From: Takakia lepidozioides
Taxonomy: Eukaryota; Plantae; Bryophyta
Length of the DNA: 64,000 bases
Direction: 5' to 3'
Assembly: GCA_030704615.1 (NCBI GenBank)
Contig: CM060732.1
Span: 22,940,001 to 23,004,000, forward strand
The notes under the pieces were generated by a model. That model did not search any database, was not told the origin of the DNA, and was given only the letters and a program-made list of their open reading frames with translations. This document shows, piece after piece, positions 10,863-61,266 of this stretch; within the stretch, counting starts at the first letter, position 1, and every line of letters begins with the position of its first letter. The position numbers and the translations under genes are program-made.

Positions 10863-11076
10863 GTACGCATTGCTAAGGTCAATATTTCTTTCATTTCTCC
10901 TGTAATTTCACACCTGAATCCCAGCTGACTAGTTCACATCCAAATTGGAGAAAGCTGTGGTAGGGGGCCTCATCTCTCTTTGTCGTAAAACATTTGCCTC
11001 TCTCTCTCTCTCTCTCTCTCTCTGTCCTACACACACGCACATTATCTGAGTCACTAACATTTTCCAGTCTTGCAGG

Positions 11077-23100: not shown

Positions 23101-24023
23101 GCTGTGACGGGCTGTGTCAGGCTGTGACAGGCTGTGCCCAGTGGCCTTTGGGGCTGTGACGGGCTGTGCGGGGCTGTGACAGGCTGTGCCCTGAGGCCTG
23201 TGGGGCTGTGACGGCTGTGACAGGCTGTGACGGGCTGTGAGGGGCTGTGACAGGCTGTGCCTGAGGCCTCTGGGGCTGTGACGGGCTGTGAGGGGCTGTG
23301 ACAGGCCGTGCCTGAGGCCTTTGAGGCTGTGAGGGGCTGTGAGGGGCTGTGACAGGCCGTGCCCATGGCCTCTGGGGCTGTGACGGGCTGTGAGGGGCTG
23401 TGACAGGCCGTGCCTGAGGCCTCTGGGGCTGTGATGGGCTGTGACGGGCTGTGACAGGCCGTGCCTGAGGCCTTTGAGGCTGTGACGGGCTTGAGGGGCT
23501 GTGACAGGCCGTGCCCATGGCCTTTGGGGCTGTGACGGGCTGTGACGGGCTGTGACAGGCCGTGCCTGAGGCCTTTGGGGCTGTGACGGGCTGTGATGGG
23601 GTGTGACAGGCCGTGCCCATGGCCTTTGGGGCTGTGACGGGCTGTGAGGGCTGTGATAGGCCGTGCCTGAGGCCTTTGGGGCTGTGAGGGGCTGTGACAG
23701 GCTGTGCCTGAGGCCTTTGAGGCTGTGACGAGCTGTGGGGGCTGTGACAGGCTGTGCCCAGTGGCCTGTGGGACTGTGACGGCTGTGACCAGTGAGCTGT
23801 GTGGGCCTGTGCTGGTCTGTGGTGGCCCGTGTTGACCTGTGGATGGCCTGTGCTGACTCGTGGAGGCACTGGTGGACTAAGGACTGGCATGTGGTCTGGA
23901 AGGCCGAATTTTGAAGCTCGTGGAGGGCGGTTTGAGGAGTATCTTCATGATATTCCCATGGTCATGCAAGTTCAGGTGTAGGCTATGTTAGGAACTTAGT
24001 ATTCCAAACCATAAGCCGCAACA
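20157..24023 (+). mobile_element. Long 5' LTR of a Ty3/Gypsy element (5' boundary uncertain)
   Basis: Lies directly upstream of gag. Ends ...CCATAAGCCGCAACA, like the end of the LTR at 1345-3360, and shares core blocks with it. Confidence 0.6.
22010..23800. repeat. Tandem array: 10-bp unit GGCTGTGAC(G/A) organised into a 51-bp higher-order repeat
   Basis: TGACAGGCCG recurs at 22141, 22192, 22243 and 22294 (51-bp period). Subunits are GCTGTGACGG, GCTGTGAGGG and GCTGTGACAG. Confidence 0.95.
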
Positions 24024-24078: not shown

Positions 24079-25586
24079 TTGAGTGTCAACACGGAGGTGC
24101 CACTAGTTGCTGGGGACAGTGCCGGTTCGAGCACTAGCGATACTAGTGGGTACACGAGACGAGGTGTGCGGTTTAGGCCACCTTCACCTCCTGTGTCTTC
24201 CACAGAAGGTTCTGATTCGGATTGTGAATCAGGAGGGCTCATACCGGTGGTGCAAGTTGTTTCTTTGCCATTGTTGTGGGACACAATGGAGGAGATGTAT
24301 GGAGCTACCAAGGGGCCACGAAGGTACTCTGGGGCGGTGGGCACCATTGAGTTGGATGATTTTATCCAAGAGTTTGATAGTTGGTGTGATTTGCAGCAAA
24401 TGCGCAATCCACAACTATTTACGCCGTTCATGGCATGGAAAGGGCTGTTTCAGCACCTTGAGGGGCCGCCTATGGATGATTACCATGAGTTCAGGCGGGG
24501 GCATGAGGTTGAGATCGAGGAGTGGAGGATGTACTGGTCACCCGACTATGTCTCCATCACTAGGGGCACTAGAGCCACGAGGGCAGTGGCTACACCTGCC
24601 GCTGCACCGGCAGCTTCAGCAAGTAGCAGTGGGACTGGTGGTACAGTAGCTACGACATCCACCCAAGCCACTACCGCACCAGCACTAGCACCCGTGCCTG
24701 CCTTCAACCCTGTTGTGGAGTTCTTCGAAGAGTTGAGAGGGAACTACCAAGGGTGAGGACAGAGAAGTTGCGGAGCTTGCAAGAGTTCCAACGGAAGCCG
24801 ACCGAGAGCTTGAGGGAGGCTTTCACTCGCATGAGGCGCTTGATAAATGTAACCCAAGGGGTTACGGAAGCTCAGGCAGTCCAATTCTGGTATGGGATAT
24901 TGGACAAGGAGCTGAGGAGAAGGGTGCGGGATGCAACTCTCCTACAAGCGGCCCAACCCACCTTAGCAATGTGTTTTTGCTGGCAGAGCGGATAGAGCTC
25001 AACATGGTGGAGGAACGAGTGGTCATGGTGGGATTTGCTAAGGAGACACCACGGGGTAGTGGTGCTCCTAGCCAACCACTACCTCAACGTGCTCAAGGCA
25101 ACAAGGGGGCTCAGGTGAAGCTCAGGGAAGGGCAGAGAGGACCTCAGATGCAGGGGTCTCTCCCTTCATTTGCTGGCCAACAACGGGCGGATGTGGTGTG
25201 CTGGACATGTGGAGGACCCCATGCCAAGAAGGATTGCCCAGAGGGAGGCAAAGGGCCGGCACATGCACAGCCTGCACAGTTGCAGTGTGGGCATTATGGC
25301 AAGCACGGGCATGGAGAGGCCCAGTGTTATGGTTTGCATCCTGAGTTGCGCCCAGGCCAGTTCCAAGGGAACAATGGTGGCCGGGGCGAGGTGGAGCAGC
25401 CCAGAGAGGACGAGGTGGCCAGCCACGAGGTGCAGGCCAAGGGCAAGCTCAACGTGGCCAAGGACGCGGAGGTCAGGGTGTTGACCAAGGCATGGCCAAC
25501 CGGCTTCAGCAGCTAGAGCAGAGGCTCGCTGCCATGGCTACAGCTCAGGTGGTACCGGCTCTAAGGCCGGATGGTCCACCTCCTGC
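24079..25586 (+). mobile_element. Ty3/Gypsy gag (frameshifted), truncated by the assembly gap
   Basis: Capsid-like segments (YSG...LDDFIQEFDSW; LQEFQRKPTESLREAFTRMRRL) and knuckles CWTCGGPHAKKDC and CGH(Y)GKHGHGEAQC. 25002-25586 is near-identical to 61266-60682 in reverse complement. Confidence 0.85.
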
Positions 25587-26086
25587 NNNNNNNNNNNNNN
25601 NNNNNNNNNNNNNNNNNNNNNNNNNNNNNNNNNNNNNNNNNNNNNNNNNNNNNNNNNNNNNNNNNNNNNNNNNNNNNNNNNNNNNNNNNNNNNNNNNNNN
25701 NNNNNNNNNNNNNNNNNNNNNNNNNNNNNNNNNNNNNNNNNNNNNNNNNNNNNNNNNNNNNNNNNNNNNNNNNNNNNNNNNNNNNNNNNNNNNNNNNNNN
25801 NNNNNNNNNNNNNNNNNNNNNNNNNNNNNNNNNNNNNNNNNNNNNNNNNNNNNNNNNNNNNNNNNNNNNNNNNNNNNNNNNNNNNNNNNNNNNNNNNNNN
25901 NNNNNNNNNNNNNNNNNNNNNNNNNNNNNNNNNNNNNNNNNNNNNNNNNNNNNNNNNNNNNNNNNNNNNNNNNNNNNNNNNNNNNNNNNNNNNNNNNNNN
26001 NNNNNNNNNNNNNNNNNNNNNNNNNNNNNNNNNNNNNNNNNNNNNNNNNNNNNNNNNNNNNNNNNNNNNNNNNNNNNNNNNNNNNN
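25587..26086. other. Assembly gap (500 N)
   Basis: Run of exactly 500 N. Confidence 1.
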
Positions 26087-32869: not shown

Positions 32870-33397
32870 TTTTATGTGGACTGCATCCAAATTTGGTAAA
32901 TAATGGATTAAAAAAACAGAGTGTGTTAAACATCCATCACATTTACAAATCCATCACATTTACAAGGCATATTGCTCTCCATAGAGTCCATCTAAGTGGA
33001 CATTACAAAGTGAGAGAATCTTGGAGTTGGGGAAATAAAAAGACTCGTGAAGATGAGCATTGAGTACCTTGCATTGATCCACAATTAATGTGTTTGAACA
33101 TTACGTTTGGGGGGTTCTAGTGTATGTACAAATGGCATCGTGCTTAGTAACAATGGATTTTAGGATTCGTACAAAATTTAGGTGTGGTTCTCCAAACTAT
33201 TGCAATTTATAGTTTATTGGCTCTGTCTCGCAAGGGATAGAGGAATTGTGGAGACATCTTGCCTAGGGGGAGAACTAGGCTTATCCATTAAGCCTAGTCT
33301 ATGGAAGGTTGATGGGCATGATTCATGAAGCCGTGGAAAAAGTATATAACAACATTACATCCAAGACAACGTTTTCCCGGGGCAAGGAGCCAGGAAA

Positions 33398-35510
33398 GTG
33401 TTCCCGTTCAAAATGTCCACAAAAGATGAGGGCAGCGGAGTCAGCCTGGTTAAACGTATGCAAAAGGGTGGCGATCTAGGCAACTGCTTCCTTATGTTCG
33501 ATCACGTCAAGAGGGTTAAAGACTGGACCACAATGGCATGTCATGTTTACGACCCTGTGTACCAGCGTGTCATGACATTGCAGTGTGTGACATGCAGTCA
33601 GAGGACACAGATTCACGGCAGCTCATGTGGGAAGCTCTCATTCGTGTTATGGCCTCCAATGGTCTCCCATCTCCCAATTTTGTTGGTTTCATGCCCGACA
33701 TTGCTCAAGCTAACTTCAACGCTGTCCGCATTGTATTCGGGACGGGAGATCCAAAAGTGCCAATGCCTGGAAGAGAACGTACGTGTCTTTTCCATTGGAC
33801 ACAATCCCTGGATAAACACACAAAGGCAGACATCAAGCCAGATATGCAGAGTATGCATCGTCAACTGTGCAAACAGTACAAAGACGCCAAAACTATGGGG
33901 GAAGCGAATACATTGTTCCAGACAATTCGTGCCTGGTGGTACTCATCTGGAGCGGCATCAGAGGACAGCATGAGGGCACTGGAAGACTGGTTCGCATTTT
34001 GGCACTTCCGTTACCGGCAGTGGGGAGCGGCCATGACAACGGTGAGCGGTTTGCATTCACCTTCCTTTGGGTGCTTCGGATATATCTTTCAGGGTCCCAT
34101 CCTTATATCGGCTTTGTGTTTTTTTGCCTTGCAGCATATGTCCATTGAGGAGATGGCGAACATGTCGTCTTGCAATCTAGCGGAGACAGTGCACAATGCC
34201 TGGTTGCAGCAATCCGGCAAAAAAGGAAGAGATTTGTATGCGGCTACGGCCGATGACCTTATCCGTGCTCTGCAGCAGCAAACCAGATACAGGTCATTCT
34301 TGAGGGGTGGCCTTGGAGGCAAAGGCCCGGACATGAGCGAGTTGATGTTGCGGGCAGCCAGAAGATCGGGGGATCCCAGCAAAATAGCGCGGGCAGTGAG
34401 CATATGTGCAGATGGCACCCCTCTCGTGGGAAAAGTTCCTCATCTGGAAGGCGAAGAGAGATTCGGGTCTTGCAAACGGAAATTGGATACCCCTCCCGGA
34501 TCGGATGCAGACTCCCATAGGGCGGACAAGGTCAACTTCTCAACGCCACGTGTTCCATTGGATCAGAGATGGAATTGCGGAACATCCACAGGTGAGGGCC
34601 ATTCTGCCCCAGACTGGACCCCTGCATCAAGCACTGTCACTGCAATGGTTGAAGACCAGAACGTGGTGCGGCATGTAATAGAGTCCATGTGCTTGGACGA
34701 GGTTTGGCATATAGAACGCACAAGTGCTGGATCGCGTGTGAATGCGCGGCGATCAGGGCCACCAATCATGAAAAATGTACATCATTAATATCCAGAGGGA
34801 AAGAACGCACTGCAGCTCCTACAGTCACTAGTTTGTTTCTCCCTTACGGCCAAGGAGAGGCAAAGAACCACAAGTTTTGGTTTTGCGCTGACGATTGCAG
34901 GAGATGTGTGCGTGGGACAGTGAGGCCCTCCGTGGTGAGGAAGCCTACTCCACCAACTGTGTGGCCTGTGAAGATGGGCACAGGTCTCACTCACCAAGAG
35001 ATTGCAATGCTGGAAGAGGCGGGTTTCTCCCTAGCCAGACATTCCATTGTACGTGAAGGTGCTTCAAGTACAAGCGGTTCACGGGTACCTCCGCCTGACG
35101 CTCACTTGTGGCCAACCAGACGGAATGGGAAGCTGGTTCGACGATTCCCTCCAACCGCAGAACACTATGGCAAAATCGAGTTCGTGAGAATGCTTCACGC
35201 TGTGGGAACAATGGAAGTGCCTGATCCAGGGTATGGTCGGGTCTTCACCATGATCTCATCTGCATCTGCGCTGCAGGACAAGACGTACGACATCACTGTT
35301 TCCAATTTTCCAAATTGTACCTGTCCTGATTTTGTTGGTATGCTTTCAAGTAGTTTGGGAAAGAGAGGGAAGTTCATACTGTGCAAACACCTTTACTTCG
35401 TCTTCTTGAGAAGAATGGTTTGTGATCCAAAGCGGGACTTCTTCATTCACCAAGCCACTATGAGTTTCAACGAAGTCAACACACTTCTACAACGGGATAC
35501 AAGCCCATAG
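33398..35510 (+). mobile_element. MULE transposase relic (DDE plus SWIM), frameshifted, 5'-truncated
   Basis: MFDHVKRV, FMPD...ANFNAV..VF...ERTCLFHW (D plus CxxH), NLAETVH (E), SWIM CTCPDF...CKHL. In-frame 93-nt GT-AG intron at 34042-34134. Confidence 0.8.
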
Positions 35511-43900: not shown

Positions 43901-46900
43901 TAAAACGCGAAATCATCTTGGATAGCTGAACCATACAAACAACTACAGACGGCATGTATACAAGATGCCGATCATCTCAACTCCCCACTCTCAAGATTAT
44001 TGAGTAGCGGTATTTGAGTCTGTTAATGGGTGGTGTTCCAGGGATCAAGAATTCATTTCATGTGCTTCCTATTGATCTCAAGGCCCAGCTCATGGTAGCC
44101 ATAATGCTAAGTTAATCAAAAGACTGCGAACATGCAATTGAGTATGTGCTGGCAGAATGTGGTTGAAAACTTCACAACATATAGCAGTAGTGTGGATGGG
44201 TCACTGGACAGACAATTCTCCATTCATTCAGACATACGGTGGCTCAAGATTTTCAGTCACGGCATTAAGCCACATTCAACTTATACCTTTTTAGTCGCAA
44301 GTGCATCTCTCGCAGACAGGTTGCGCATGAAACGCTTTGGCCTTGACTCAAGTAGAGGAAGACGCCTTAGCTGGGCTTGTTCCTCATAGAAACCTGCATT
44401 GAATATGTCCCCAACAGCCTGCAGCACAAAGCCTCGGAATGAAACGGAGAAGGCCTAATCCTTGCCATCCACAGAAAAACTAGGAAACTGATTCAAACAA
44501 AGACTTTAAATTTCCAGGCCAAACGTTGCACAGAATTTATAGTCCTAGAAAAGATCCACACAGTTGAAGTAATGCTAAGAATCCAAGACACAGGTAGCAA
44601 TGAGAGCCATACATTACCTTTGAGATGAGAAGAACTAGCATTATCAGAGGTAGAAGCTTTAAATTATTTGTAATTTCCACCATAATCACACACAGTGACA
44701 CAGTCATCCTCATTGAGCCCCCAAGAAAGGACGCTGCACCTAGCAAGGCATATCTGCATGCATACGCATCACACACACAACAATTAGACTCTTTAAGAAC
44801 ATACTGAATAAGACTGCTCGTGACAACTGTGGTACATAAGCCTCCATGATTAGTCTAGATAAACAGGTCTGCTGACCATCTAAATAGATTCCTTCCTGAA
44901 AATAGCTCTCAAATGCATACATTGAAATGCCAAGCCCACATACAATGCTTCTACCTGAAACAACGTACTGCCCATATTGAAAATTTTGCCACAAACCCCA
45001 CGTTGCTGACCCTTGCCTGCCTCCCTTAATACACACAATCATTAAACAGGCGCAGTTGAAGGTCCATGAAACATACGTTCCTTCGTCAATGCTATCTTTC
45101 TTGGACGCATTGACTACAAGCATGCCAACAAGCCGCCCATATGTAGCTCCAACCATGATACCTGGCACAAACTGCCCTGAGGGCACAGCTGTGCCATATG
45201 TGACCACCGCCAGGAAGAAGAACATTACCTGCACTAACAAGAGTTCGTTACTAACTGGGAAAAGAGTTGTGTAATGCAATCTACTGTTAAAGTCTCTTAC
45301 TGCAGACCATGCTGCTGAGGGATCTACTGCCATAATGTGTCCATTAGTACCAAGTCCGCACACAAACTCCATCTCTCCCTATCTGTATCTTGTTCTCATT
45401 TCTTAGAGGTAACCCAGATCAAAACCTATCTACCTAGCCAAGTTTAGCCTACAAGGTACACCTCAAAATTCCTGCCTGGCCAAAAGCAAGTCTGAATAAT
45501 TCTGCAGTTGCACTTATTAGTCAAACCAGCATTTGTTCAAATCAATCCCTGCTATCTTTCTGATACAACTCAAATGTAACAAGAATATTCAAATCGACTA
45601 AAATGGTTAGCAAAAACATGAACCCCATGGTTCCAACATGATCCCTTGTTCTCTCAACTCGGAAATTCATTCACTTTTCCCACATTTCTCACGAACTCAT
45701 CAAAGCAAATGAAAGAAGAGAGTGTCTCAAGCAAAGAGTCTGTGCCTAAACAGAAAGAGCTCATACCAGGAACGTGACAAGGCTACGTGCACTGTACTCA
45801 TGCACAGTTTTGGTGCTAAACAGATTCCGGATAGCATCATCCTTGCAATCACAATATACCACATTGGCAGAATCATTAAATACTGTCACACAGTCACAAA
45901 CTTTGGCTTCCTTGAAGTCAGTTTGGACAAATGTAAGCTGCTAACAGTGACAAAGACTACACAGGCAGCCACTCATGGTACGGGAGCATAAGCCTCCTGA
46001 TAGACAAGCTGGAAAAGGTTTGAGAGCTAGGAAAGAACCCTTACCTGTGTATTAAAAAAGATTGTAGCAAGGTCATTATATTGACTTTCACTAGAGCAAT
46101 GGAACTGTACACATTCCCACAAATCCCAAATCAACCCATGAACCTCCCATACTCTCGAGTTCAAGAAAAAGTTCAGTAACAGGTAGACCTCAACTATGAA
46201 GCTTCAAAAGACCAGCTAGGTAGAAATGGCTCAAGTGACCTAAAACGAAACCCAGCATGTAGATCCAAGACCAGTATAATACAAAGTACGATGTTAAGTT
46301 CAATTGCAAGCTACAACTTGGAGTACCAACAGTAAATAAAATACAAGACGTCGTGGCCACACAAGCACCTCCAACAATCAGGTGCAACTGGAGGTCCTAC
46401 AAAGAGTTCCAATCCGCAAAACAGCTTAATTTTTGAAGACCAGATTCTATTACCGAAAAGGAGAGCAGGAATGGACGCACAGGGATACCGAAGCTTCAAC
46501 TTACATTCACGTAGTTGCCAATATGCCCAGAGGGGCGAGGACAAACTACTTCCGGATACTTCAGAGGGTCCGGGCATGGAGTACATTTGGTCATTAACGG
46601 CAAACCAAATGAGAGTACAGATGTTATTAAAGACACCGTGCATGCCTCTAGGATCTGCATTGCCCACCCCATGGGTACAGTTAGTACAAGTCTTTCTGTG
46701 CCCAGCCTCCCTCCTCCTCTCTGCTCCTCCACACATCTACTCCCTGAAAACCCTCAGCACCAGGAGTACCAGTGGCATGGCCATCCTTCAAAACACCACC
46801 AGGTACTCTCTGCACAATCTTAAACATATGTCCACCTGAGGAGCCTTTCGAACTACCTTCTATTCAACAATAATCATATAATTAGGTGCCTTTGGAGGTT

Positions 46901-49900
46901 ACACTGCCCTCAGAACAAGGCCACAAGATCCAGCTCTGCTTTATGAAACCATGAACCAGAGAAAATGCCAGCTACACACCTTCACACGATTTCCCCGTTT
47001 GTGCAGCACTCTACGACGCCAGGATGAGAGAGATAGAGTCAATTGGTTAAACAGTGCACCTGCATACCAACAAGCAATCCACTCCATTTTCACCCACATG
47101 CCAAGAAGAACAGAAGTGTGGGTTTACACTAACACCGGGCAATACAATCAAATTCACCAACACAGCCGCAGATGGAAAGAAGTGCAGTGTGTATAAAGCT
47201 CACAGAGAAGGCAAACAGCTATCTTTTCAGCAATGCAGGAGAGTTTCTCCTAATCTCCAAACGGCAGCTACAACTTGAGAGGCCTCCTGGAAGGCCACAG
47301 CATATGGCTACTGATGGTCATAGTCCTGGGTATGGCTCAAATGGTCAACTAGACAAACTCAGATTTTAGTACAGCTTGAAAATTTTACAATGCACTTAAG
47401 TAATTCTTCCAAATGCTGACATCCAAGAATGTGCTGTGCAGATTTACTAGAAATGAGACAAAGCAATAGTCGAGTCCATGAATCGGCGTCCAGAAAGGCC
47501 AGTAAGTGGGCTCACACCAAGTAATCCTCCAATAGCACCAAGCATCGCCATAGGAACAAGCTCGTAAAATGAATAGTCCTCTTGACCCCTGAATGTCAAG
47601 GCATCAACATGAGCAAAACATTACAAAATTTGAAGTATTCACTGCACCGTTTTCACAACTTATTAATCATGTCCAGGGATTCTCTATCTTCCAAGATGTG
47701 GCACAAATAATGAGTCCTAGTCCTCAGAGCTTACCCTGATATGTCCCATATAATGAATCCGCCTGAACCAAAATGTCCACAATTTCCATGCCCACACCAG
47801 CCCATTGCAGTCCGCACCACAACAGCCACCACGGCTGAGGTGAAAAACACCCGCCATAGCAGTTGACTCCTCCACCTGTACACCCCATGGCCGGCATTAC
47901 AGTTGATAACCTTCAAGACTTGAACCAGGTGTGAGAGGGAAAGGACAACCGCGTGATTCCAACAAAAAAACACTCGTACCTTTACGACTTCAGGACAGAA
48001 AAGAAAATTCATGTGTGGAAGCTTGAAGGTAGTAGAATAAACTACATTGCAAAGATTTCTTATGGGAACCAACATTTGGTCTCTGTGGACAAATATTCTT
48101 TTCAGTACATGACCCATACATCAATAACACAGGCAGTGCACCCAATGAATATCGCTTGTAAATTCTTCACCAATTGTCTCTAATATGTTCTACTTCGCTG
48201 TCACGAGTGCAAAGGCAATCAAAAGCCAAGCAAGAATCAATAACAAATCCTAATGGAAGCAGAAACAAGGAAGCAGACAGCAGTCTGAAGAAACAGAGAC
48301 AAAGACAAGAAGAAGCTGCATACCAGGAGGTGACCTCCTCAAGGGCAAAAAGCACACCACCAACAGGGGCTCTGAAAGCTGCTGATACACCAGCCGCACA
48401 GCCACATGTCACCTACAATCATGCCAGCAGCTAACCTCATATCTGGGTCAACCCCTCCCAACTTACAATAGAGAGATGCACTTCACAGGTTCTCTTTGAC
48501 AGCAAACACTTGCACACACTGCTATCAGACAGCAGAATGCAAAAGAAAAGGTGACGACCGCATGTGCCGCCAACTGTGCAAGTCACTATACTAAAAATAC
48601 CACCAAAACTCGACCCTCTGCATGCAAACAACCTCAAGGACCCGTCAAGCAGATTGAGTCTTACAAGATCACGACGATCTCGGTCATTCCTGAAAACCCG
48701 CAGCCATCTCCACTTCACGTAATACTTGGTAGAACCCCCCTGTAGTCAAGCAGGATATGATGAATAGACAAATACAGAATGCCACACTCTTTGGGAGCAC
48801 CTGATCGTAATCTACCACTGCAACTACTTGGCCAGCAGGGTAGATTTGACTACATGGGTTTCCGGATTGTGTGATGGCCTTGTGGCCATGACCCATTGTA
48901 GAAGGGGGGGTATATGAAATGATAAAGACATGTTGATGAACAATATGGTGCTGCCAGATGTGCAGGAATCAATCCGACCACTTGTTCCACTACAGTTCAT
49001 CTGTTCTCACTCCTAGATAGTCAAACAAGTAGATAGCAAGTAAAAATGCAGTGCTCCTCACTAGGGCACTTTGTCATTGAGAATGACCTGAGAACCCTCC
49101 TGTGGTATTACCTTTGGCTACCGCAATAAGATCTCTCTCATCAACTCTAACCTTCTTTTTATTTTCGGCCGCTATTAGTTCATGTGTTTGAAGCCTGAAT
49201 ATATTTCAACTGCCATTGAAACTAAATCAGAAAAGATAGCTGTCTGATAAGAGATAATGGAGTTGACCTGCCCAAGAATTGATGCAATGCAAGCACCAGT
49301 GTGCACAAGAGGTCCTTCTTTCCCTAGAGCTAACCCTCCTCCCACGGATCCGATGCTACCAAGGATCTGCGAGAAAGTTTCAGCCCAATGCAAGCCCTGA
49401 CAATAAGATAATCTTCTTCGGAAATAAACCCACATGAGCACAAGAGAAGCATGCCTCTTCGACTGAGCTTGCAGTTTAAGGTCAGGCCTTCGTTGTCCTG
49501 CTCAGTAACCCTTGGTGAAAAGCATCAAACATCTATGCTTGCAAGTCTCATATGGCAGACATCGCAACAGTGCACCTGAGAAGTAATAACCAAACTTTGA
49601 CCCTCAACATTGCCAAGTTGTGTGTCGTAGCCAAATTACAGAAGAAAGGTTCGATGAGTTAATCTCTCTCTCGCTCTCTCATGAAGTTAGGCATAAAACT
49701 TCCCTGAACTTGTTTCCAGTCTGTGACATGGGTGAGGACATTAAGGATAACTACCTTGGACCAGGACTGAACTTTCTGCCCGCACATCAGGCAACTACAA
49801 TCTCCTCTGAGCTGCATGTTTGACTATATGAAACTAAAATAAATAAGTACACATTAATTTTTATTCTCACCAGAGAGTGACCCTCTTCAGAACGATCGAG

Positions 49901-52900
49901 AACATTGTCCCGGCACCTCTGTTCACCAACTTTGAAAATCTTGAGGCTGAGCCTAAAGCCCTGGCCCTGTTGGGGTCTACATTTTGGCTGCTCACACACA
50001 GCAGATTGATGCTCATGTGAAGGGCTTTCTAGAGGTCACACTACCGGAGTGAGACCCTCACAAAGGTAGTTTGTGGTCCCTTTAGTTCCACCCGAACTGG
50101 GTGCGGGGTGTGGCAAGGCTATGGCAAACAAAATCTTATGACTACTTCCTCGGTGTCTCACTCTCTCTGTCTCTCTCTCGGCTACGGCAAACAACGTCTT
50201 AGAAGTACATTCTCTCTCTCTCTCTCTTTCACCAACGTCCCGCTCGAACTAGGCGCGGGGTCAATGGCCACAAGGCTAGGGCAAACAAAGTCTCATGAAT
50301 ACACTCTCTTTCACCAACATCCCAAATCTCGAGGCTGAGCCTAAAACCCTGGCCCTGTTGGGGTCTAACTGCTGGGCAGATCACACACAACAAATTTATG
50401 CTTGTGTGAGGGACTTTCTAGAGGACATCTGGAAAGCCTGAACAAATTGATTATATCAAGTCCCACTACAGGAGTGAGCCCCTCATGAAGGTGGCTGTCT
50501 GTTCCCTCTTGTTCTGCCCAAACTGGGTGCAGGGTCTATGCCCACAAGGCTACACCAAACATCTAATGTTTCTCTCGCTCTCTCTCTCTCTCTCCATCCC
50601 TCTGGCCTAGCTTTAGTGTCGACTAAGTCAGATGGTTGATGGGCTCTTACCTTCCCCACCAGTGTCCGGAACAGGAGGATACCAGGAGTATCTATGCCTG
50701 CAACAACATATCAAACCTGTTGGTTTTCTCAAACCAGAGTATGAAATAAGAGTCCCTAAGAAGAATAACCTTGTGGACAATGAACCAAAGTTTCACAGTA
50801 TCAGCTGCACAGTTTTGCATTCTGCCAATCACCTTTAGCAAGCATCCAGTCATTGGAAAGATCTTCCCTAGTAATTTCAAGTTTCACTGCAAAATGGCAC
50901 TGAACAAACCAAAAAAGAGTGAAGGATGTGAACAAAAGGTTTTCAAGCAGTGCTGATCTAGATGAATATAGGCATACAATGTGCCAATCATCTACCACAC
51001 TTACCATTTAGGTAGCCCTTGATCTCAGGTATGCCAGACCCAGCTGCTGCAGGAGCAAATTTGGTGACTATGGAAACTGAAGAGAGTACCAAAACTACAT
51101 TAAACAGAACATAGAGAAGAAAGCCTGCAAAATATGAATGTTTCATGATGGCAAATGTCGCAGCAAACTTCCACCCTGAAAAATTCTCAACTGCAATATT
51201 GATGAAAAATGCAGAGAGACCTGTACCTGCAACCCGCAAACCACCAACCAAGACCAAATCTGGTAGTCAGTGTGACCAATCCGATGCAGTGATACACTTC
51301 ATTTCACATATTCGTGGCCTTTGCCTGTACTAGCCACTGCAGAGAGACCAAATGCCTTCTTCACAGCTATCTGCAACATGTCAGCATATGGTTTCAGTGC
51401 TAGAAGTTTACAGTGGTGTTTATTTTTACTTTGAAATGACCACATCAACATGTGCTCCAATGTACTTCCATTTACAGCTGCAAGTGCACTCAGTCTTTCG
51501 TGCTCCAAGATCACCAACGCAAGATCACACACCAGTCCACTGGCTCAAATAGTTACCATCCCCAGAACTCTTCAGCAGTTCAGGCAATGTGGACTACAGA
51601 GCAGCTTCCATGCCACCGAATGCCACATTTGGAAGGGCCAAAGTTTGCCAGAAGTACAGTTCACAATTCCCCTTACTGTATGGACCAAGTGATTGAGGCA
51701 CAGATAGGGTCTCCAGTCTCAACTCACTTACATGAGGGAAATATTCAGGTCTGTGGAGAGAAAAGACGAAGGAAGATCTCTTATTTGCCAAAAGGCCAAT
51801 GTAACAGAATGCTAGTGCATGTCCGTATCTTACGACATAGCACCACTTAACTTGAAGTCTAAACATACATGTAGAAAGACAGCAGAAATAGTGGAAAAAT
51901 GGACCTGATGACCCAGATGGAGTGGCCACTTCATGTGAAAACAGATTTACCCCACTCCACAGTAGTGCCATTTTCTGGAGGCATTCCCCATCCCTGGGGC
52001 ACCCAAAATTTATCTTCCACACCTAGATACAAAAACTAGGTAGAAGATGCCACAAGCTGAAAGTCTAAATATGGCAGGCAAACTGAGAGCAGACTTAACT
52101 AAAATGTCGGGAATCACTCACCCACACCAATGAGGAGTGCGAACAACCACTTCAACGTTATGTAGGATGCATGGTGCCATCTTCCTCTTTGGGCCTGCAT
52201 ATTATAACATACATATACTTAACACATAAGTTTCTTTGCCCCATTTTGACATCCATGGGAGCAAATCTGCAGGAGCAAACCATAGCTCAGCTGGTAGCAG
52301 AGCTTTGCATTGCAAAAAGCGAATTCAGTGCGAGCATATATAACCCTTTTGTGGATACTTCCTCAGTCATCCCTCTCAAAGGCAGGTGAGGTGGAGCTGC
52401 TCTTTAAGGCCATCGTATCCAAACATTTTATTACAGAGCTAAGGCCCGCAACCCCTTTTTCTTGGCAGAAACAAAAAGACATAGCAACCTCATGAGGTCA
52501 TTTGCTGCATCCTTCACACCTGAGGCCTTTCATAACGACCTAGTAACGTTCTGGACTCCTTTTGATCTATCACTCCAGTTGCAACCATAAAATATACAAC
52601 AAATTGTGCGCCGGTGCTACACATTTCAACTTGACAAAAATTAATCCTAAGGCACACAGACAGCACCTCCGGGCACCGCTTAATCCTATTTAGCTGCCAA
52701 GTTCTTAAGGAAAGTAAACTAGCTTGAGTGCCTGCGCATAAAGACACTTTGACGGCCGACAAAAAATGCATAACTATATTATTATCAGCGATCGAGCTAA
52801 TTGAAAAAAAAGGGCAAGAAGAGAGCGTACTTGATCCTCCCGATACGCAAGGGTCTCGACCACTTCATAATCAAGACTCTCCATGCCTGCTGTGCCAGCT

Positions 52901-53028
52901 TCTGCGATGGCATCACTTCCATTATTGGCGTGCTCTGAGTCGGGAGAGGGTACTAGGGGAGAATCAGTGTTGAGTAGGCGAGACCACATAGGGCCGCCGT
53001 TGACGCCCGGCATGCTTTCCCCCTGCAT
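40931..53028 (-). CDS. CLC-D: CLC chloride channel / Cl-/H+ antiporter, CLC-d-like, about 22 exons, two CBS domains
   Basis: Exons give MESLDYEVVE, APAAAGSGIPEIKGYLNG, LGKEGPLVHTG, AAFRAPVGGVLFALEEVTSW, WRSQLLWRVFFT, GHFGSGGFIIWDIS, PSGQFVPGIMVG, LGGSMRMTVSLCVIMVEITNNLKLLPLIM, HNGFP and YNLFRQLGLRH. Borders checked are GT-AG. Start and last exon are approximate. Confidence 0.93.
42990..43105 (-). mobile_element. LINE 3' stub in CLC intron
   Basis: TCCCTTTGTGTTCCGCTCAAACTGGGCGCGGGGTCAATGGCCACAAGGCTACGGCAAACAACGTCTTATGAGTAC, the same family as 7551-8075. Confidence 0.75.
49900..50600 (+). mobile_element. Four stacked LINE 3' stubs with (CT)n tails in CLC intron
   Basis: Terminal motif GGCTA(C/T/G)GGCAAACAA at about 50117, 50180 and 50275, degenerate at about 50548, each followed by a CT-rich run. 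Confidence 0.75.
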
Positions 53029-54597
53029 GCCAGGGTCTTTCTCACACCTTCCTTGAATCAATCAAAGCTTGCTACCTCAATTTCCGTGTTTGCGCCCCAC
53101 CTCTTCTCTCGTCTTCTCTCAGTCCTTATTTTCTCTCAACGTGCTTTGGCTGAGGTGTACAACTGGGAAGAGTGCCAAGCAGCTTAAACCCTAGCTCAAT
53201 CTGCCACCGTTCTTTCCCCTTCAGTACCTGGCAGCATTCACGTGGCCAGTCCTCCTCTGACAACCGCACCTCCTCCCCCCTTTCTGTCCCTCTGTCATGG
53301 CCACAACTAGTAAGCTACCATTTAGCTGTACAAGCAGGAAAATGCGCGATCGAAATCTTCCTTCTAGATTCAATGTGTGTGCCGAATCGCTCGTGCAATG
53401 TTACCGTTTGAAAGCGAAGTACCTACCCCTCTCTTGCACCCCGCCCCCTTCCACCCCTCCCCTCTCGTCCTCGATCAGCGAAGCTCTTATTCAGATGAGT
53501 GATGGAATCATTGTCAAGTGGAAGAGTAGCATCCAATCCCCGTCTCCATATTCTCCCAACCCTGCCTTCCCAACTCCCTACCAGCTGTAATCCAGTGTGT
53601 GAGACCCCCGATGATTGCCCGCAAGCAGCAGAGCCTCCCACGCTCTGGCTCTTGCTGAGCGAGCAGGCGAGCTGAGCGATGGCCGGATCGATTACTTCAT
53701 CGCTCTGCCCACGCAAGCAAATTGCAAACCAAGACACGACCATTCACATGAGTCTACAGCCTGCCACACGCCGCTCCACCGTGGGTTCAAATCCACAAAC
53801 TCGAACGACGCTGGCAACTGCTCCACAATGATGATTGTCGGTTGGGAGAGAAGCAGTGTTAAAACAAATGAAGAGAAAATGAAAATGTCTGCTTACTAAG
53901 AGCCACTTATGCCATTTCGAACTCCGGGGGATTGTAGGTTCAAATCTTGCTACCTTGTCGAGTGTGGTATTATATTATCTTCTTCCCCTTCTCTTGGGCA
54001 GTGTCCCATTCCGCGTCCCATTGAGCATGAGCATGGAATGGTTAGTTTTGAGCTGGTGGAGATGCGGCTATGTATCATAACGTGCTTTGCATGCAGAATC
54101 AAAAGCAGGGGCAGATAGTTTTGTCACCTAAGAGATCGGTACTACATCAAGGAGCAAGCAAAGGAGAGGCCGACTACGATTCGGCCGTAGCCGGATGTCC
54201 CTTGCGGCCGTGGGCAAAACATCCAATACGTCAAAATACACATAGATAGGAAGAAAGAGAGAAAGAGAGAAGAATCCGAAGCTGGCTTAAGCTACCGTGG
54301 TTACTAGGCTACTGGACTCTTTTAGGGGTGGGCTCCATAAGTATAGACAAAAAAAACAAAAACACACACACACACATATATATTGGTTATTCGTTATTTT
54401 GGTACCTCATATATGGGTACCTTAAACTTGTGAGGTTACTGTAGAAGGAACTTGAAGTCAATTGGTGCCATAGGTGCAGTTTTAGGAAAAATAAATCCAA
54501 GGTTCATCTTTCCTTCGAGCCTTACAAAAGGAAGCGCATCATCTTATGATCCGGTCCCAATATGGATGTGGCTTGATTTTATTGCAAGTGTGTGAGC

Positions 54598-56292
54598 TGA
54601 TGGGTACGGCCGCGAGGTACAGCCAGGAACCCCGCTCTGGCAGCCTCGTCGGCGACATGGACGGCCCATGTCAAATCATCCCCACCCCCCTCCGACCCAT
54701 CCGCCCGTTGCCCCGCCCGCCTGCTGCTCCCCGCGCCCACCGCCCGGGACCCTGACCCCCGCCCCCCACGCTGGCCACGCGCACCCCACAGCACCGCCCG
54801 ATCTCCAGCCACGTGGCGGCCCCCGCTGTGGATCCCCTCACTGGGTTGATCCCCCTTCCAGTGCCGGAGTGATCCCCCACCCCCATCTCTAGCCACGTGG
54901 CGCTACCCCCGAACTGTCGATCCCCTCCCCATCCAACCTCAATTAAATGGATGACGGCCGGATGAAGGCCCCATGACGCGTCCATCGCCATGTGGCGCTC
55001 CCGTCGCCGTCGATCCCCTCCTCCCATCCACGGCACGCTCCCCCGAGACGTCGCCGCTCCCCCCAACGCGCCTTGATCCCCCTTCCAGACCAGGAGTGAT
55101 CCCCCAACCCTATTCGCCCGCCACATGCGGCTCCCCCGGACCGTCGATCCCCTGCGCATCCATCCAACCTCACAAACAATGGATGTTGTGTGTCATCCGC
55201 CCCTCATCCTCCCGCGCAAGGGATGGACGACGGCCGGATGAAGGCCCGATGACACTGACAGGCCACGTGCCGCTCCCCCCGCCGTCGATCCCCTCTTCCC
55301 ATCGACGGCCCGATCCCCCCACACACCCCCCCCCCCCCCCCCTCGGTTGATCCCCCGTCCAATGCGGTGACTGATCCCCCTCCACCCATTGGACGGCACG
55401 TGGCGCTTCCCCCGCCGCCGATCCCCTCTTCCCATCCACGGCGCGATCGCCCGACACGTCGCCGCTCCCCCCGACCTGGCTTGATCCCCACTCCGGACCG
55501 GGAGTGATCCCCCACCCCTAATCGCCCGCCGAACCGTTGATCCCTACGCATCCATCCAACCTCCAAACGATGGATGTTCTGGGTCATCCGCCCCTCATCC
55601 CCCGGCCATCCTCCCGCGCAGTGGATGGACGACGGCCGGATGAAGGCCCCATGGCACGCCACCGCCACGTGGTGCTCCCCCCGCAAAATCCCCTACGCAT
55701 CAATCTTACTTACAACCACTGCCGTTCACAGTGACACGCCGCCACGTCGCAATCCCCTCCGCCGTCGATCCCTCCAACGGTTAGAGGCCTGATCCCCCGA
55801 GCCCAGGCGCGGTCCTCCGGGCCTTCGACCATGGATGGCGCAATCCCCGCGCTGTCGCTCCCCCGCCTCGATTGATCCCCTCCTCCAATTCGGGGACTGA
55901 TCCCCCTCCCCACATTTTTCCGCCCCGTGCTGCTCCACGGTGCCCTCCATGACACGTGGGCCACGTCGCGGTCCCCTCGTCGTCGATCCCCCCCCCCCCC
56001 CCCCCCCCCCCCCGCCCCCCGCGCCGTCCATCCCTCTCGACCGCGTGCCAGCACCCCCAATGTCGATCCGTTCCCGATCCCCTGCTCCCCCCCAGGGACT
56101 CATCCCCCTTGGCCCTTGTCGTACGCATACATATCGCTACACAACTACATCGCTGTCCAAAACCACACAACACATGTGCACACCACACACTAGTATACCA
56201 CTAGTCCACCACTAGTCCAACCACTAGGCTACAACTAGTTAGTCACTAGGCTGCCACTATGCTGCCCACTATGGCAGTCACTAGTCCACACA
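54598..56292 (-). mobile_element. Putative 3' LTR region of the MTase-Gypsy element, GC-rich with internal repeats (distal boundary uncertain)
   Basis: PPT AGGGGGGCGAT (56303-56293, -) is immediately followed by TGTGTGG at 56292. GACGGCCGGATGAAGGCCC is repeated at about 54953, 55229 and 55631. Candidate end ...CCCATCA at 54598. Confidence 0.5.
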
Positions 56293-56552
56293 ATCGCCCC
56301 CCTAGCTGGTGCTTAGGTCCCTCTAAGTCCAGGTAGCCACAAGATGTGATAGTGACCATAGCCTCACTAAGTCTTCCACCACTATCCCTACTACACTCAA
56401 ACTCGATAGATCAAGAGGCCGGGTGCAAGAGTTGCCCCATCGTTAGTCGCCGTCTTGCAACCTGTGAACTTGAGCTTGGGATCTCATGTATTGACTCCTA
56501 TGAACTTGGCCTCCCATGTCTTGTTAGCTGCCTCCAGTCATGTCCACTGCCA

Positions 56553-57098
56553 CTATCCCAAGCAGTGTGGACACAACCAATCTCCGTCAGGAACCTTCTC
56601 AAGAGGTGGTGTCAAACATCCCATATGCCAACCCCTTGAGCATCGATCACACACCAGCATGGTGGCTGCCCCTTTGGCAGACCCACAGAGCATGCACCTC
56701 AAACCTGCAGGTACCACTGCCAAGTTTGGGTCAACTCTGCCATCGACATTGGGAAGGTGACATGGCGCATAATTACGCACATAGTCCTTCCAAGTCATGC
56801 CATCCCGACCCTCCAAGATCAGGACCCCTGAGGGCAACACCTCTCGAACCCTCAGAATAACACGCCCTGTAGTAACATCCAGAGTCGTAGGAGCAGTCTG
56901 CTGCAAATAAACATAGTCACCAGGGCTAAACCTCCGAACCCCAGGACGATATCCTCCCACCACGTATAGTGGCATACCTCAACGTATCATGGTGCTGTGC
57001 AATGGCAAGGTTCTCAAAAGGAATAGGCATGACTTTCTTGAACAATTCTGCACGCTGATCACATGCACGTACCCACACGTCCGGATCGTCAAGGTTAG
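56553..57098 (-). mobile_element. Gypsy integrase C-terminal tail plus PHD finger
   Basis: ENLAIAQHHDTLRYA...RRFSPGDYVYL (post-core integrase region, one frameshift), then C4HC3 PHD: CMLC...MLVCDRCSRGWHMGCLTPPLEKVPDGDWLCPHC. Confidence 0.88.
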
Positions 57099-57718
57099 GT
57101 GGAGCTCTCTGGTGGAGAGTATGCTTCAGCCACAGTGATGCCAGCCAAGAAGGATGTCTATGGCAATTGGACAGAGAGACGTATGTGCGGTGATTACCGG
57201 CCTGTAAATCGTCAGACCAAGTCCGATAAGTATGCCATGCCAACACCAGAGGAGATATTTGATGCCATCGGGCATGCTAAGGCTTTAGCACTTTGGATTC
57301 ACGATCCGGATATCACCAGTTGCCAATCAAGGAGGCGGACAAGCAGAAGACGGCATTCTGGGGGATCAATGAGCACGGCAAGGATTGCCTATATCAGTGG
57401 CGGTTCTTACCATTTGGGTTTAAGAATGCTCCTGCAGAGTTTCAGAGAGTCATGGACAAGATTCTAGCAGGGGTGGACTTTGCTCGGTGCTACATAGATG
57501 ACATCATCATCTTTAGTGTTACGATGGAGGAGCATGAGAGACACCTTCAGGTGATATTGGAGCGCTTGAGAGCGCACGGATTGAAGTTGCATCCGGGGAA
57601 GTGCAAGTTTTTCCACAACCAGATTGAGTGTCTGGGTCACATGATATATCCTGGAGGATTGGGGGTACAACAGACTAAGGTAGAGGCCATTGCACAAATT
57701 CCACGCCCCACGGATGTG
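57099..57718 (+). mobile_element. Gypsy reverse transcriptase core, inverted relative to the rest of the element
   Basis: YASATVMPAKKD...RMCGDYRPVN, D.RSGYHQ, LPFGFKNAPAEFQRVMD, YIDDIIIFS, LHPGKCKF...LGH. One frameshift near 57290. Confidence 0.95.
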
Positions 57719-57890
57719 ACCTGCCTCCCAGAGATCTTGAGTCCTCATCTGAATCAAAGACCTCTCCATGTCACTGTATCTATAGGGTCTTCGAAAGATT
57801 GGCGTGTCAGTGGCCAACTCAATATGGATCTCTTGACCCTTCAGTGCTCCCAAGTCCTTCAAACTGAAGGCAATGCAATTCCTGAGGCAA
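57719..57890 (-). mobile_element. RT N-terminal region (element orientation)
   Basis: AFSLKDLG..GQEIHIELATDTPIFRRPYRYSDMERSLIQMRTQDLWEAG, which naturally continues into VELS..YAS at 57099 (+). Confidence 0.85.
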
Positions 57891-58025
57891 TGCCCTCAGG
57901 AACCGTCGTATACGTCGTCTCTCTCCTCCGGTGACAATGGGTCCAATGTCAGGCTCCCAATTGTCCTCCGTAACTGCAACCTTAAGTCCAGTGGGCTTAG
58001 TAGTAGAGGACGCGTCCAGTGGTTG

Positions 58026-59280
58026 CTATGTTGCAACCTCTTGAGCAGTACTCCCTGCCTGCTCAGTCAATGACAAGGCATCATCCTGCCCCATCATCTC
58101 ATCCTTGAGGACCTCCTCAACCCGAGAAGAATCCCCAACCTCATCCATCACAGTCGCCTTGGCTGCCAACTCCCTCTGAACCTCGAGCACCTCCCACTTG
58201 TGCCATAGATGCATACACCCCGTGGTCCTCACATGCTTGCCCCCACTCACTGCCTGTACCGTCTCGGTAGGCAGAGAGACCATCGAGGGAAGTGTACTCC
58301 GCACTCTGCATTGCTCAGCCAGAGCCAAGCTGATAATCCAGGTCAAGCAATCGAGATCCATTGCTTGCCCCAACACTTGACGATGTGATGCCTCAGAAAG
58401 AGACAACACCGCCGTGGTACCAGTGGTAAAACCCATTGCCCGCTCATGCTCGTCAGCATTAGGCTCCACTAACTGCTGCAACTGAGCATCCCACAGGAGG
58501 CCAGGTCCACTATCCCGGAAAGCATGCGATCCTGGGAAGCTGAGCAGTGTAGGTAATGTTGCTCGTGGTTGACCCACCTTGTTGACCACTGCCAAAGGCG
58601 AACGGTCATCATGTCTCACACGCTGAGACTGCCTCCCTGTCTCCAGAATGCTATCCACTGTGAGATGTGCTGGCCGCTGTACCCCATCAAATGCACGCTT
58701 GAGCAGTGCGGGTGGCATCAAGTTAGTCCACCATAGCCGTGGACGATGAGCCCGTGACCCCACTGTAGCTGCATCTAGCAACACTGCTGACCCAAGCCAC
58801 GACCGGACTTGATGCACACTAGCCATCACCCTGGCTCGAGAATCGCCCATCAGTGGCACATTCTCCAAGATGTATGCTGGAGATACAGCTTGATGAAGCT
58901 GTAAGTGGCGCAAAACCCGCACCATCTCCCAAAACAGACCCGACCTCGAGTCTCGCAATCCATTGCCATGCCCGGCTGATGAATGCCCTTGGCAGGGCCA
59001 ACCTACTAGATCAATGGAGCCAACCCGCTCCAAATCCTGCGCCCCCAGCAACGAAATGTCTGCTGGCAAGGCCTGCTGATATCCACGAATTGCAGACACC
59101 GACAATAACTCAGGGTACTGCTACACCAACTGAGCAATATGGCGAAGTGAAATGTGTCGTGTAGTCTCATCCTTCTCCACATACAAGTAACGCCGAACTC
59201 GTACACCTGCCTGTAACACAGCAGCCAATCCGGTGCTGATCCCGCCAAACAAGTCCAGAAGACAAATGCCTTCATCCGGA
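58026..59280 (-). pseudogene. DNA (cytosine-5) methyltransferase domain within the Gypsy polyprotein
   Basis: Motif I LLDLFGGISTG (about 59262-59230), II YLYVEKD, IV DLVGWPCQG (about 59000), VI YILENV, VIII HRPRLWW, IX ERAMGF..GTT and X LGQAMD, all in canonical order. One internal TAG at 59123-59121. Confidence 0.92.
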
Positions 59281-59492
59281 TACTGCTACACAATAGGTGT
59301 GGTTTCCAATGGAGACAACTGAGGTGGTCCTGGTGCAATCCCCGCACTCTCCTCCTCTCCTAACGGTACAAAAGCCTCCACCCAGGCTTGTTGCACCCGT
59401 CGATCAGCATCCCGCTGCAAATCCTTACTCGTGCCCCACAATGGAGTCTAAGCAACCATGGTAGGCAACTCTGCCATACCATACATGTCATC

Positions 59493-60044
59493 CTACTCTC
59501 CCGGAGGTGGCACATCCTCTGAATGAGCGTTGCCCTCAAGCAACTCTTTAGGCCAACTCACTGCCGCTGTGAATGCTGCTAGTGTCGGCATCTTGCCTCG
59601 CTGGGCAACCGCAACTCCTCCTATGAACGTCACAGGGAGCTGCACACGCCGACCCTCCCCTGACTGCCATGCAGGCCTATAGGAAGCTGACTCCTCCCAA
59701 AAATCCAGGGTGAAGCCCATGGGGTACAACACTGCCCCACCAACCAGGACATCGTATGAGACCGCGTCTGTCACAATGGCCTTGGCTCGCATCACTGAGC
59801 CATCTGTAGGGTGATCCGGCTGTAGTCTGATAGCCAACTCACGTCGTGTCATGCCCCGAGCCTGCTCCGATCCTCCCAGAGACGTCTGTATCTGGAAAGG
59901 ACAAGGCTCCATATTCGCCTCCGTGAGGCCCAAGCCTGCAATAGCAGCTTTGCCCAGCATCAGTGGCTGAGCTCCCGAGTCCAACAAGACCCGCAGTGGC
60001 CGGTACCTCTTGCCTGCCGGTCCACTCAAACAGAAAAATGCCAT
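59493..60044 (-). mobile_element. Retroviral-type aspartic protease of the Gypsy element
   Basis: VLLDSGAQPLMLG ... YDVLVGGAVLYPMGFTLDF. Same reading frame as the MTase. Confidence 0.9.
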
Positions 60045-61266
60045 CCTGGTTGTCTAACATGACAACTCCAGGTGTCAACATGGCGCGCTCAATGGCTAGC
60101 CTAGCTGGCAGCTCCATCAACTTGGCAGCTGTAGCTTGCCATGGCGCCGCCGTGGCAGTCTTGACCCTCAAATCCGAGGATCCCTCCGGCACTACACCTC
60201 TCACTATCTCCGCAGAAGATGAAGTAACCTCCTCACTCTCACAGAGTGTAGCTGCCAGCCTGAACACCTCAGCTGGTCTTACCCCCGGCATCGCAATCAT
60301 GGTAGCCGAGAACAATGGAGCTTGGCACACAGACGTGGCCGCTCCTAGCAGCACACTAGCTGTCGTAGCCTTGGCAACACTAGGTAGTGGTGCTACCCGT
60401 GTAGCTCTCCCCAATGGCATAGTAACCTCCGCCTCGGTAACAGTCGGGCGAGAACTAGGTGCCATGGATGGCGTCGACACTGTCTCCGCCAATGTGAATG
60501 ACTGAGGAAGCCTAGCCTGACGGCTTGCCTCCCCACGCTGTGGATCCAACTCCACCTCTGCACCTCGTGGCTCAGGAACTCGTGCTGCTCCTCGAGTCAC
60601 GGCTGCAGCAGACTCCACCTGCACTAGTGGTAGTGTTGCTCCACACATGAATCCCATGCCTCCCATATCTCCTCCCTCAGGAGCAGGAGGTGGACCATCC
60701 GGCCTTAGAGCCGGTACCACCTGCGCTGTAGCCATGGCAGCGAGCCTCTGCTCTAGCTGCTGAAGCCGGTTGGCCATGCCTTGGTCAACACCCTGACCTC
60801 CGTGTCCTTGGTCATGTTGAGCTTGCCCTTGGCCTGCACCTCGTGGCTGGCCACCTCGTCCTCTCTGGGCTGCTCCACCTTGCCCCCGGCCACCATTGTT
60901 CCCTTGGAACTGGCCTGGGCGCAACTCAGGATGCAAACCATAACACTGGGCCTTTCCATGCCCGTGCTTGCCACAATGCCCACACTGCAACTGTGCAGGC
61001 TGTGCATGTGCCGGCCCTTTGCCTCCCTCTGGGCAACTTCTTGACATGGGGTCCTCCACATGTCCAGCACACCACATCCGCCCGTTGTTGGCCAGCAAAT
61101 GAAGGGAGAGACCCCTGCATCTGAGGTCCTCTCTGCCCTTCCCTGAGCTTCACCTGAGCCCCCTTGTTGCTTTGAGCACGTTGAGGTAGTGGTTGGCTAG
61201 GAGCACCACTACCCCGTGGTGTCTCCTTAGCAAATCCCACCATGACCACTCGTTCCTCCACCATGT
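60030..61266 (-). mobile_element. Gypsy gag C-terminal part with two zinc knuckles and linker; 5'-truncated at about 61266
   Basis: CWTCGGPH.K..C (frameshifted) and CGHCGKHGHGKAQC. Near-identical to 25002-25586. Confidence 0.88.

Follow-up and report, generated by a model that had tools for sequence, protein, structure and literature searches.

Chromoviruses carry a chromodomain at the C-terminus of their integrase, and in DNMT3 enzymes the PHD-like ADD domain abuts the catalytic domain and controls it allosterically. REM1 of Chlamydomonas is reportedly a Gypsy element with a PHD finger. More broadly, published text describes PHD fingers as widespread retrotransposon add-ons (PMC6673714; 10.1101/2021.11.30.470311). 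Three combinations close to the one described here are already in print: a DNMT3 in a Gypsy element (PMC5890265), a PHD finger in a Gypsy element (PMC9940879), and a chromatin reader with a cytosine methyltransferase in one LTR retrotransposon (EpiLTRs; 10.64898/2026.05.21.726589). The first of these, KnitGypsy-Dnmt3, joins DIRS-like repeats to Gypsy domains; its methyltransferase was inactive in yeast, a result that the authors call inconclusive (De Mendoza et al. 2018; PMC5890265). The second, Gypsy-7a_cRei of Chlamydomonas, has a PHD finger, proposed to lessen harmful insertions, and a 2.6-fold intergenic bias; by its figure legend it differs from the present element in that no methyltransferase is listed and the order suggests a PHD before INT (PMC9940879). 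EpiLTRs resemble the present element in uniting reader and writer, and differ in having a chromodomain reader, a DNMT4-related DNMT and an adenine methyltransferase (10.64898/2026.05.21.726589). The papers on these elements leave open what the DNMTs of retrotransposons do, a question that the family described below makes testable in model plants.

We analysed a window of 64,000 nucleotides of Takakia lepidozioides (contig CM060732.1, positions 22,940,001 to 23,004,000). Judged by its domains, the element on its minus strand is a Gypsy-DNMT3 retrotransposon of the kind described from Klebsormidium. Like KnitGypsy-Dnmt3, the window family combines the domains of a Gypsy element with a DNMT3-like domain that is not rearranged, and the window's relatives share its DIRS-like split repeats (A-coding-B-A-B). 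In addition, a protein of the same host, K. nitens (GAQ92421.1, here P0054), has the same integrase tail and PHD finger and adjoins the window's clade; the likeness rests on the published description and on P0054, which comprises the integrase part and the PHD. The two differ in that the window's branch has a conserved stop between methyltransferase and reverse transcriptase (RT), whereas KnitGypsy-Dnmt3 was, by the text, published from K. nitens only and with the DNMT in the Pol ORF (PMC5890265). Our data widen the range of Gypsy-DNMT3 elements to bryophytes and, with the methyltransferase beside the integrase, to chlorophytes. The text and searchable supplements of PMC5890265 contain no mention of a PHD, and Fig. 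4c may show one. Searches of article text found no description of PHD and DNMT3 paired in one Gypsy element, nor of the chlorophyte and bryophyte range, the conserved stop or the loss of acidic residues from the finger; bioRxiv supplements, such as the fusion table of 10.1101/2021.11.30.470311, may list the family. The observations themselves are anatomical: a finger, its place past the integrase barrel, its retention across the family and a conserved stop.

The window copy and its surroundings

Translation of the minus strand from 56556 to 56978 runs through the end of a Gypsy integrase into CMLC...CDRC...H..C...CPHC and then a stop. The preliminary description had taken this for an intact C4HC3 PHD finger, and we confirm it: the ligand set is complete, a Trp stands ahead of the final Cys pair, and PF00628 is matched over its whole length (E 1.6e-11; score 44.5 bits, cut-off 24). 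An AlphaFold model built on a 51-row alignment gives the finger a pLDDT of 92-95, and in matches with the finger alone it superposes at 0.6-1.4 A on the solved PHDs of DPF2/3, ATXR5, BAZ2A/B, UHRF1 and BHC80. The linker PAGL[RK] ahead of the first Cys is conserved, and the identity of the integrase tail, finger included, to P0005 extends over residues 594-725 (Table 1). The finger forms the C-terminus of the integrase, so the proposal that it sits where chromoviruses carry their chromodomain also stands. The further statement that a polyprotein ends in the finger applies to the family, in which RT-RNaseH-INT-PHD occupies a single frame (P0017, P0028, P0015 and others), but not to the window copy, because here the RT is inverted, RNase H and the integrase core are gone and a frameshift intervenes. 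The ATG at 56975 that had been suggested as the start is out of the homologous frame; the frame of the finger begins at the frameshift.

Comparison of the assembled sequence with relatives places the deletion of RNase H and integrase core at the junction of the inverted RT. The missing stretch (1,660 bp in L005, 1,671 bp in L044) contains the RT end, RNase H, the integrase zinc finger and the integrase catalytic core. The methyltransferase domain (PF00145, 6.2e-10) keeps motifs I, IV, VI and VIII in unrearranged order; DNMT3A provides its only PDB matches, which are weak (E 0.0015), and four stops interrupt the alignment of the protease-methyltransferase region to P0063. A 5' repeat or a matching target duplication was looked for and not found for this copy. 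The window copy is a dead, rearranged Gypsy-DNMT3 retrotransposon without an intact polyprotein, and being dead it adds little beyond one more member. Internal deletions also occur in the related loci L012, L013 and L070, where the methyltransferase region is joined to the integrase with loss of RT and RNase H and with no inversion.

Table 1. Parts of the Gypsy-DNMT3 element, in window positions
Feature	Position	Strand	Basis
3' gag part with zinc knuckles	60054..61266	-	gag N-terminus and 5' repeat missing
Aspartic protease region	59600..60053	-	LDSGA motif; PF13650 0.0063, under cut-off; homology to P0063
DNMT3-like C5 cytosine methyltransferase domain, stop-broken	58311..59285	-	PF00145; weak DNMT3A PDB matches; motifs
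Candidate leaky stop: in-frame TAG with CAA CCA after it, separating methyltransferase from RT	58026..58028	-	stop in 32/32 matched loci
ORF2 start: linker and RT N-terminus	57720..58025	-	comparison with relatives
Inverted RT core, one frameshift inside	57099..57719	+	PF00078 1e-28; breakpoints against L005, L032, L037, L044
Final helical segment of integrase, in another frame; catalytic core absent	56958..57096	-	frameshift near 56957
Integrase C-terminal beta-barrel domain and linker, in the PHD frame	56697..56957	-	76% identity to P0005; five model strands
PHD finger, intact C4HC3 (Cys95-Cys139 of P0001)	56562..56696	-	translation, Pfam, AlphaFold model, structure matches
TAG stop closing the integrase-PHD frame	56553..56555	-	translation; window-branch relatives end <=25 residues past the finger
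Purine-rich tract ahead of terminal repeat, likely PPT	56294..56306	-	56289-56338 kept 86-90% in L005, L037, L044
Single B-type terminal repeat, end CGACA; element 3' end	56117..56293	-	80% over last 40 nt against L044 B repeat, E 4e-4

The element lies just upstream of a CLC chloride-channel gene (exons at about 44700-53060, minus strand), since the N-terminal exon of that gene follows the 3' end of the element at a distance of about 3 kb. Imperfect repeats of 130-300 bp make up a GC-rich block (54600-56110) directly past this end; 80 related loci gave no match to it. A second copy of the same family (24286-25586, plus strand) runs from the gag N-terminus, shares 98% identity with 60683-61266 over 586 bp and is cut by a gap of 500 N at 25587-26086; its long 5' region contains a GC-rich 51-bp tandem array (about 21980-23770). 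Elsewhere in the window are a gene that marks the DNA as that of a land plant, coding for an RNA-editing factor of the PLS class of PPR proteins with domains E, E+ and DYW (11050-13392, plus strand), a tRNA-Leu(TAA) gene (10157-10241, minus strand) and two related open regions on the plus strand (2-1184 and 33350-35510; 72-78%), one with a SWIM finger, which are probably remnants of MuDR-type transposases.

Range, repeats and retention of the finger in the family

When the integrase tail and finger served as query, 58 proteins were returned, 53 of them with PF00628, and the named hosts were Marchantia, Calypogeia, Sphagnum, Coleochaete and Klebsormidium. A profile search of a 50%-identity library listed 150 representatives, in 145 of which a local profile found the finger, a proportion biased towards PHD presence because the search profile itself contained the finger. 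Relatives have the Gypsy order PR-RT-RH-INT with a DDE integrase, and the methyltransferase occurs at two places within it. In the window, in the bryophytes and in P0028, P0208 and P0222 it lies ahead of the RT. In the other order, with Haematococcus and Monoraphidium as named hosts, it lies between RNase H and integrase, and the tail past the finger is longer (40/150 with RT or RNase H visible). These orders correspond to two groups, A and B, in an unrooted RT-RNase H tree. The trees (FastTree, midpoint-rooted with no outgroup, branch B subsampled to about half of 118) bear on this A/B split and not on monophyly within Gypsy or on the direction in which the methyltransferase moved.

In metagenome loci the repeats are arranged A (339 bp)-coding-B (113 bp)-A-B with ends TGTCA...(C/T)GACA; among 60 loci with a repeat match, 4 show ABAB and 14 BAB. 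Single-B ends like that of the window, which keeps one B, are common among the loci, and a target duplication is still present there. Two established lineages were considered and rejected. Chromoviruses (MAGGY etc.) likewise have a reader domain on the integrase C-terminus, but theirs is a chromodomain reading H3K9me where the window family has a PHD, and Pfam scans of the window and its relatives returned no chromodomain. Phygy (REXdb) has a 4-bp NCGN target duplication and a tRNA-Trp primer site; 4-bp duplications were found in 7/8 loci having both ends, none of them NCGN, and no TGG primer site follows repeat A. Nor was any tRNA-type primer site found after the 5' A repeat. In loci with a 5' A repeat, 10-16 bases following A could pair with a segment within A that lies some 25-40 nt past a TATA-like box, on its downstream side; the complementarity reaches 17/18 in L044 (2018-2035) and L079 and 14-15 in L005, L033 and L066, and is weak in others of the 14. 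This arrangement possibly reflects Tf1-like self-priming. A scan of viral contigs for relatives gave five pattern matches and no confirmed one.

Finger and methyltransferase occur together in nearly all members. A search scored on the chlorophyte-type methyltransferase alone found the finger in 111 of the 120 proteins listed out of 256 matches, and the nine without it stop at or ahead of the integrase C-terminal domain (CTD). In the window branch the finger is present in all 25 testable methyltransferase-bearing loci. Conversely, the methyltransferase is found in 31 of the 36 loci having 4.2 kb of upstream sequence, and three of the five loci without it are internal deletions that carry the 5' repeat just upstream of the RT. 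The finger follows the CTD in 66/67 testable loci among the best 80 of 519, a ranking made with a query that included the PHD. The preliminary description would have been contradicted by absence of the finger from most methyltransferase-bearing copies, and the opposite is seen. Two proteins, P0231 and P0232, have the finger and long N-termini with no detectable methyltransferase.

Uncorrected pN/pS between the window and the loci is 0.35 for the PHD, 0.26 for the CTD, 0.26 for the methyltransferase and 0.22 for the RT, and by this measure the finger is under purifying selection between lineages like the other domains. Among near-identical loci the ratio is 0.82 for the PHD against 0.38 for the integrase core, and the finger is damaged in 20/60 loci. 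Across 114 proteins the distances of both domains co-vary with those of the RT (Mantel rho 0.38 for the methyltransferase and 0.20 for the PHD, 0/300 permutations).

Residues of the finger at the histone-binding surface

The solved sequences nearest to the window finger are readers of unmodified H3, namely CHD4, KDM5A/B PHD1, ATXR5, BHC80, BAZ2A and UHRF1. In K4me3 readers the cage Trp sits two residues before the His. This residue is Gly in the window, and it is aromatic in 0/17 members of the window branch and 3/247 other relatives; these and the following residue counts exclude 27 irregular fingers that failed the C4HC3 regex. A gap-free alignment to KDM5A PHD1 places window L108, P130, G132 and W134 on L309, P331, G333 and W335 of the Ala1 pocket, and D111 on D312, which is described as an essential Arg2 contact in the text of the KDM5A study (bioRxiv 10.1101/715474). 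Each of the pocket residues and the Asp is kept in 16/17 window-branch members. In fold, Ala1 pocket, Arg2-binding Asp and lack of a K4me3 cage the finger resembles KDM5A/B PHD1, BAZ2A, ATXR5 and BHC80; the window's branch differs from these in lacking the N-terminal Asp and the acidic wall. KDM5A D292, E305, D306 and D315 are replaced by Ala, Ala, Ala and Ser in the window finger, and the E305/D306 positions are acidic in 0/17 of the window branch against 171/247 of the other relatives. The net charge is +1 in the window finger and on average +1.7 in its branch versus -4.3 in the other relatives. Fingers without these acids form a clade of Coleochaete, Marchantia, Calypogeia, Sphagnum and the window (FastTree support 0.94).

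Published binding data, as given in the text of the two studies, bear on these changes in two ways. In KDM5A either of the substitutions D292A and E305A lowers affinity about 6-fold (bioRxiv 10.1101/715474), and double neutralisation of the acidic wall of BAZ2A weakens it 17-fold (PMC5415848). BAZ2A binds ARTA as well as ARTK (PMC5415848), and in KDM5A PHD1 main-chain carbonyls can hold K4 (bioRxiv 10.1101/715474). We therefore describe the window finger as one that likely reads the free N-terminus of H3 and is unable to prefer K4me3. Because the acids are gone and the net charge is positive, members of the window branch may bind H3 weakly or no longer bind it. The resemblance to H3K4me0 readers that had been suggested for the window finger is borne out in the Ala1 pocket, the Arg2-binding Asp and the missing K4me3 cage, but not in the acidic K4 pocket; the label would fit the algal fingers well and the window finger in part.

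The conserved stop and the relation of finger to methyltransferase

In the window an in-frame TAG-CAA-CCA (58028-58020) stands between methyltransferase and RT. A stop is present at this site in all 32 matched loci (28 TAG, 4 TAA), always with CAA as the next codon, and for this reason we do not take the window TAG for decay. Six gene models of Marchantia and Calypogeia (P0060, 62, 63, 66, 70 and 71) end 77-82 residues past the methyltransferase, about at the stop site, and in the branch-A members P0028, P0208 and P0222 the frame is continuous from methyltransferase to RT with no stop. Since the conserved stop intervenes, ORF1 comprises Gag-protease-methyltransferase and ORF2 comprises RT-RNaseH-integrase-PHD. 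Plant-virus leaky stops have a wider form, CARYYA. The narrower form is UAG CAA UYA, by the text of PMC2754532, and both the window (CAA CCA) and its relatives (CAA CCC) depart from the CAA UYA consensus. The context still resembles a plant-virus leaky stop, which suggests that ORF2 is made by readthrough; re-initiation at an ATG that relatives have two codons past the stop, splicing or an internal promoter could make it instead.

We propose, with about an even chance of being right, that the integrase-PHD is a chromatin tether on the free H3 N-terminus and acts separately from the element's methyltransferase. Gypsy Pol is processed by its protease. In the proposed mechanism ORF2 would be made at a lower level through readthrough of the stop, and the protease would free the integrase-PHD. 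The finger would then hold Ala1 and Arg2 of H3 with no caging of K4me3, which would bias insertion away from active promoters, and a window-type finger would have lower affinity than the acidic fingers of its algal relatives and would discriminate less well at K4. Gypsy-7a_cRei, with its PHD and its intergenic bias, is a precedent (PMC9940879). The methyltransferase, made at the level of Gag, would be packaged and would methylate the element cDNA or the new copy; the excess of methyltransferase over integrase that the conserved stop predicts fits cDNA methylation in the particle. The two modules would thus serve one strategy, landing in quiet chromatin and looking like it, without an ADD-type allosteric link. 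Copies of the family are present in Marchantia, and domain order and finger type, each in two forms, offer a natural comparison.

The main competitor, somewhat unlikely in our estimate, is that the finger of the streptophyte branch has changed its ligand: in place of H3 it would contact a host protein or a nucleic acid (DNA or RNA), or would pack against the barrel of the integrase. The loss of the acidic K4-pocket residues in a supported clade, the neutral to basic charge and the conserved linker are what this reading would predict, but the finger retains its Ala1 pocket and the Asp that binds Arg2, and, by the cited text, main-chain carbonyls can hold K4 and BAZ2A accepts ARTA as well as ARTK. 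A different alternative denies the finger any role, making it a functionless passenger or a host-gene fragment fused by the rearrangement of the window copy. That the copy is dead and rearranged near the finger, and that a third of the loci have a damaged one, would accord with this; yet the homology of CTD and finger to intact relatives is unbroken and the finger is found from chlorophytes to mosses. Co-occurrence, retention in the loci and pN/pS largely refute this alternative, and we regard it as very improbable.

The preliminary description went further than a tether and suggested that the element reproduces the logic of ADD plus methyltransferase within Pol. On this reading finger and methyltransferase work as a unit, and binding of H3K4me0 would direct or trigger methylation where the element inserts. 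As in DNMT3A/3L, a PHD-like H3 reader and a DNMT3-type catalytic domain are indeed part of one genetic unit. Near-obligate co-occurrence across deep divergence and the covariation of both domains with the RT would be expected of such coupling, and the chlorophyte branch has RT-RNaseH-MTase-INT-PHD in one frame with an acidic, KDM5/BAZ2-like finger. Vertical inheritance alone, however, predicts co-occurrence. The finger of the window family is moreover a canonical C4HC3 finger on the integrase and past a stop codon, without the adjacency of the ADD; even in one-frame members of the window's branch, methyltransferase and finger are 1,142-1,307 residues apart, a readthrough product would likewise space them by more than 1,100 residues and be open to cleavage by the protease, and the acids are lost. 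The methyltransferase is found at two different Pol sites while the finger is always on the integrase, and P0231 and P0232 have the one with no sign of the other. For the window element we consider ADD-like coupling improbable. Such coupling would be more plausible in the chlorophyte order, because there the methyltransferase lies a median of 187 residues from the integrase core (519 from the finger).

A wider scenario, which we think unlikely, is that of an old Gypsy family of the whole green lineage which has combined an H3 reader with a DNMT3 writer since before the split of chlorophytes and streptophytes, in two wirings. In chlorophytes a fusion of methyltransferase, integrase and PHD with an acidic K4me0 reader would act in an ADD-like manner and methylate the new insertion. 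In the land-plant line the methyltransferase would have moved into the ORF of Gag, upstream of a leaky stop, and would be loaded into particles at high copy number, and the freed finger would have lost the acids of its K4 pocket.

Further domains were seen in some chlorophyte-type proteins. P0040, P0103, P0125 and others have a tail of about 300-400 residues past the PHD, which in P0040 looks like a small barrel with an adenine-methyltransferase-like domain (DPFSGSG...TSPPF) behind it. The adenine-methyltransferase-like motif is present in 41/144 long tails, a count made with a crude motif that is too loose to rely on. In the scanned tails P0219 matched PF21743 and there was no other Pfam match. 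Finally, P0093 (1053 aa) combines PHD, PCIF1_WW-type and C5 methyltransferase domains without an RT or integrase match, and may represent another assembly of a reader with two writers.
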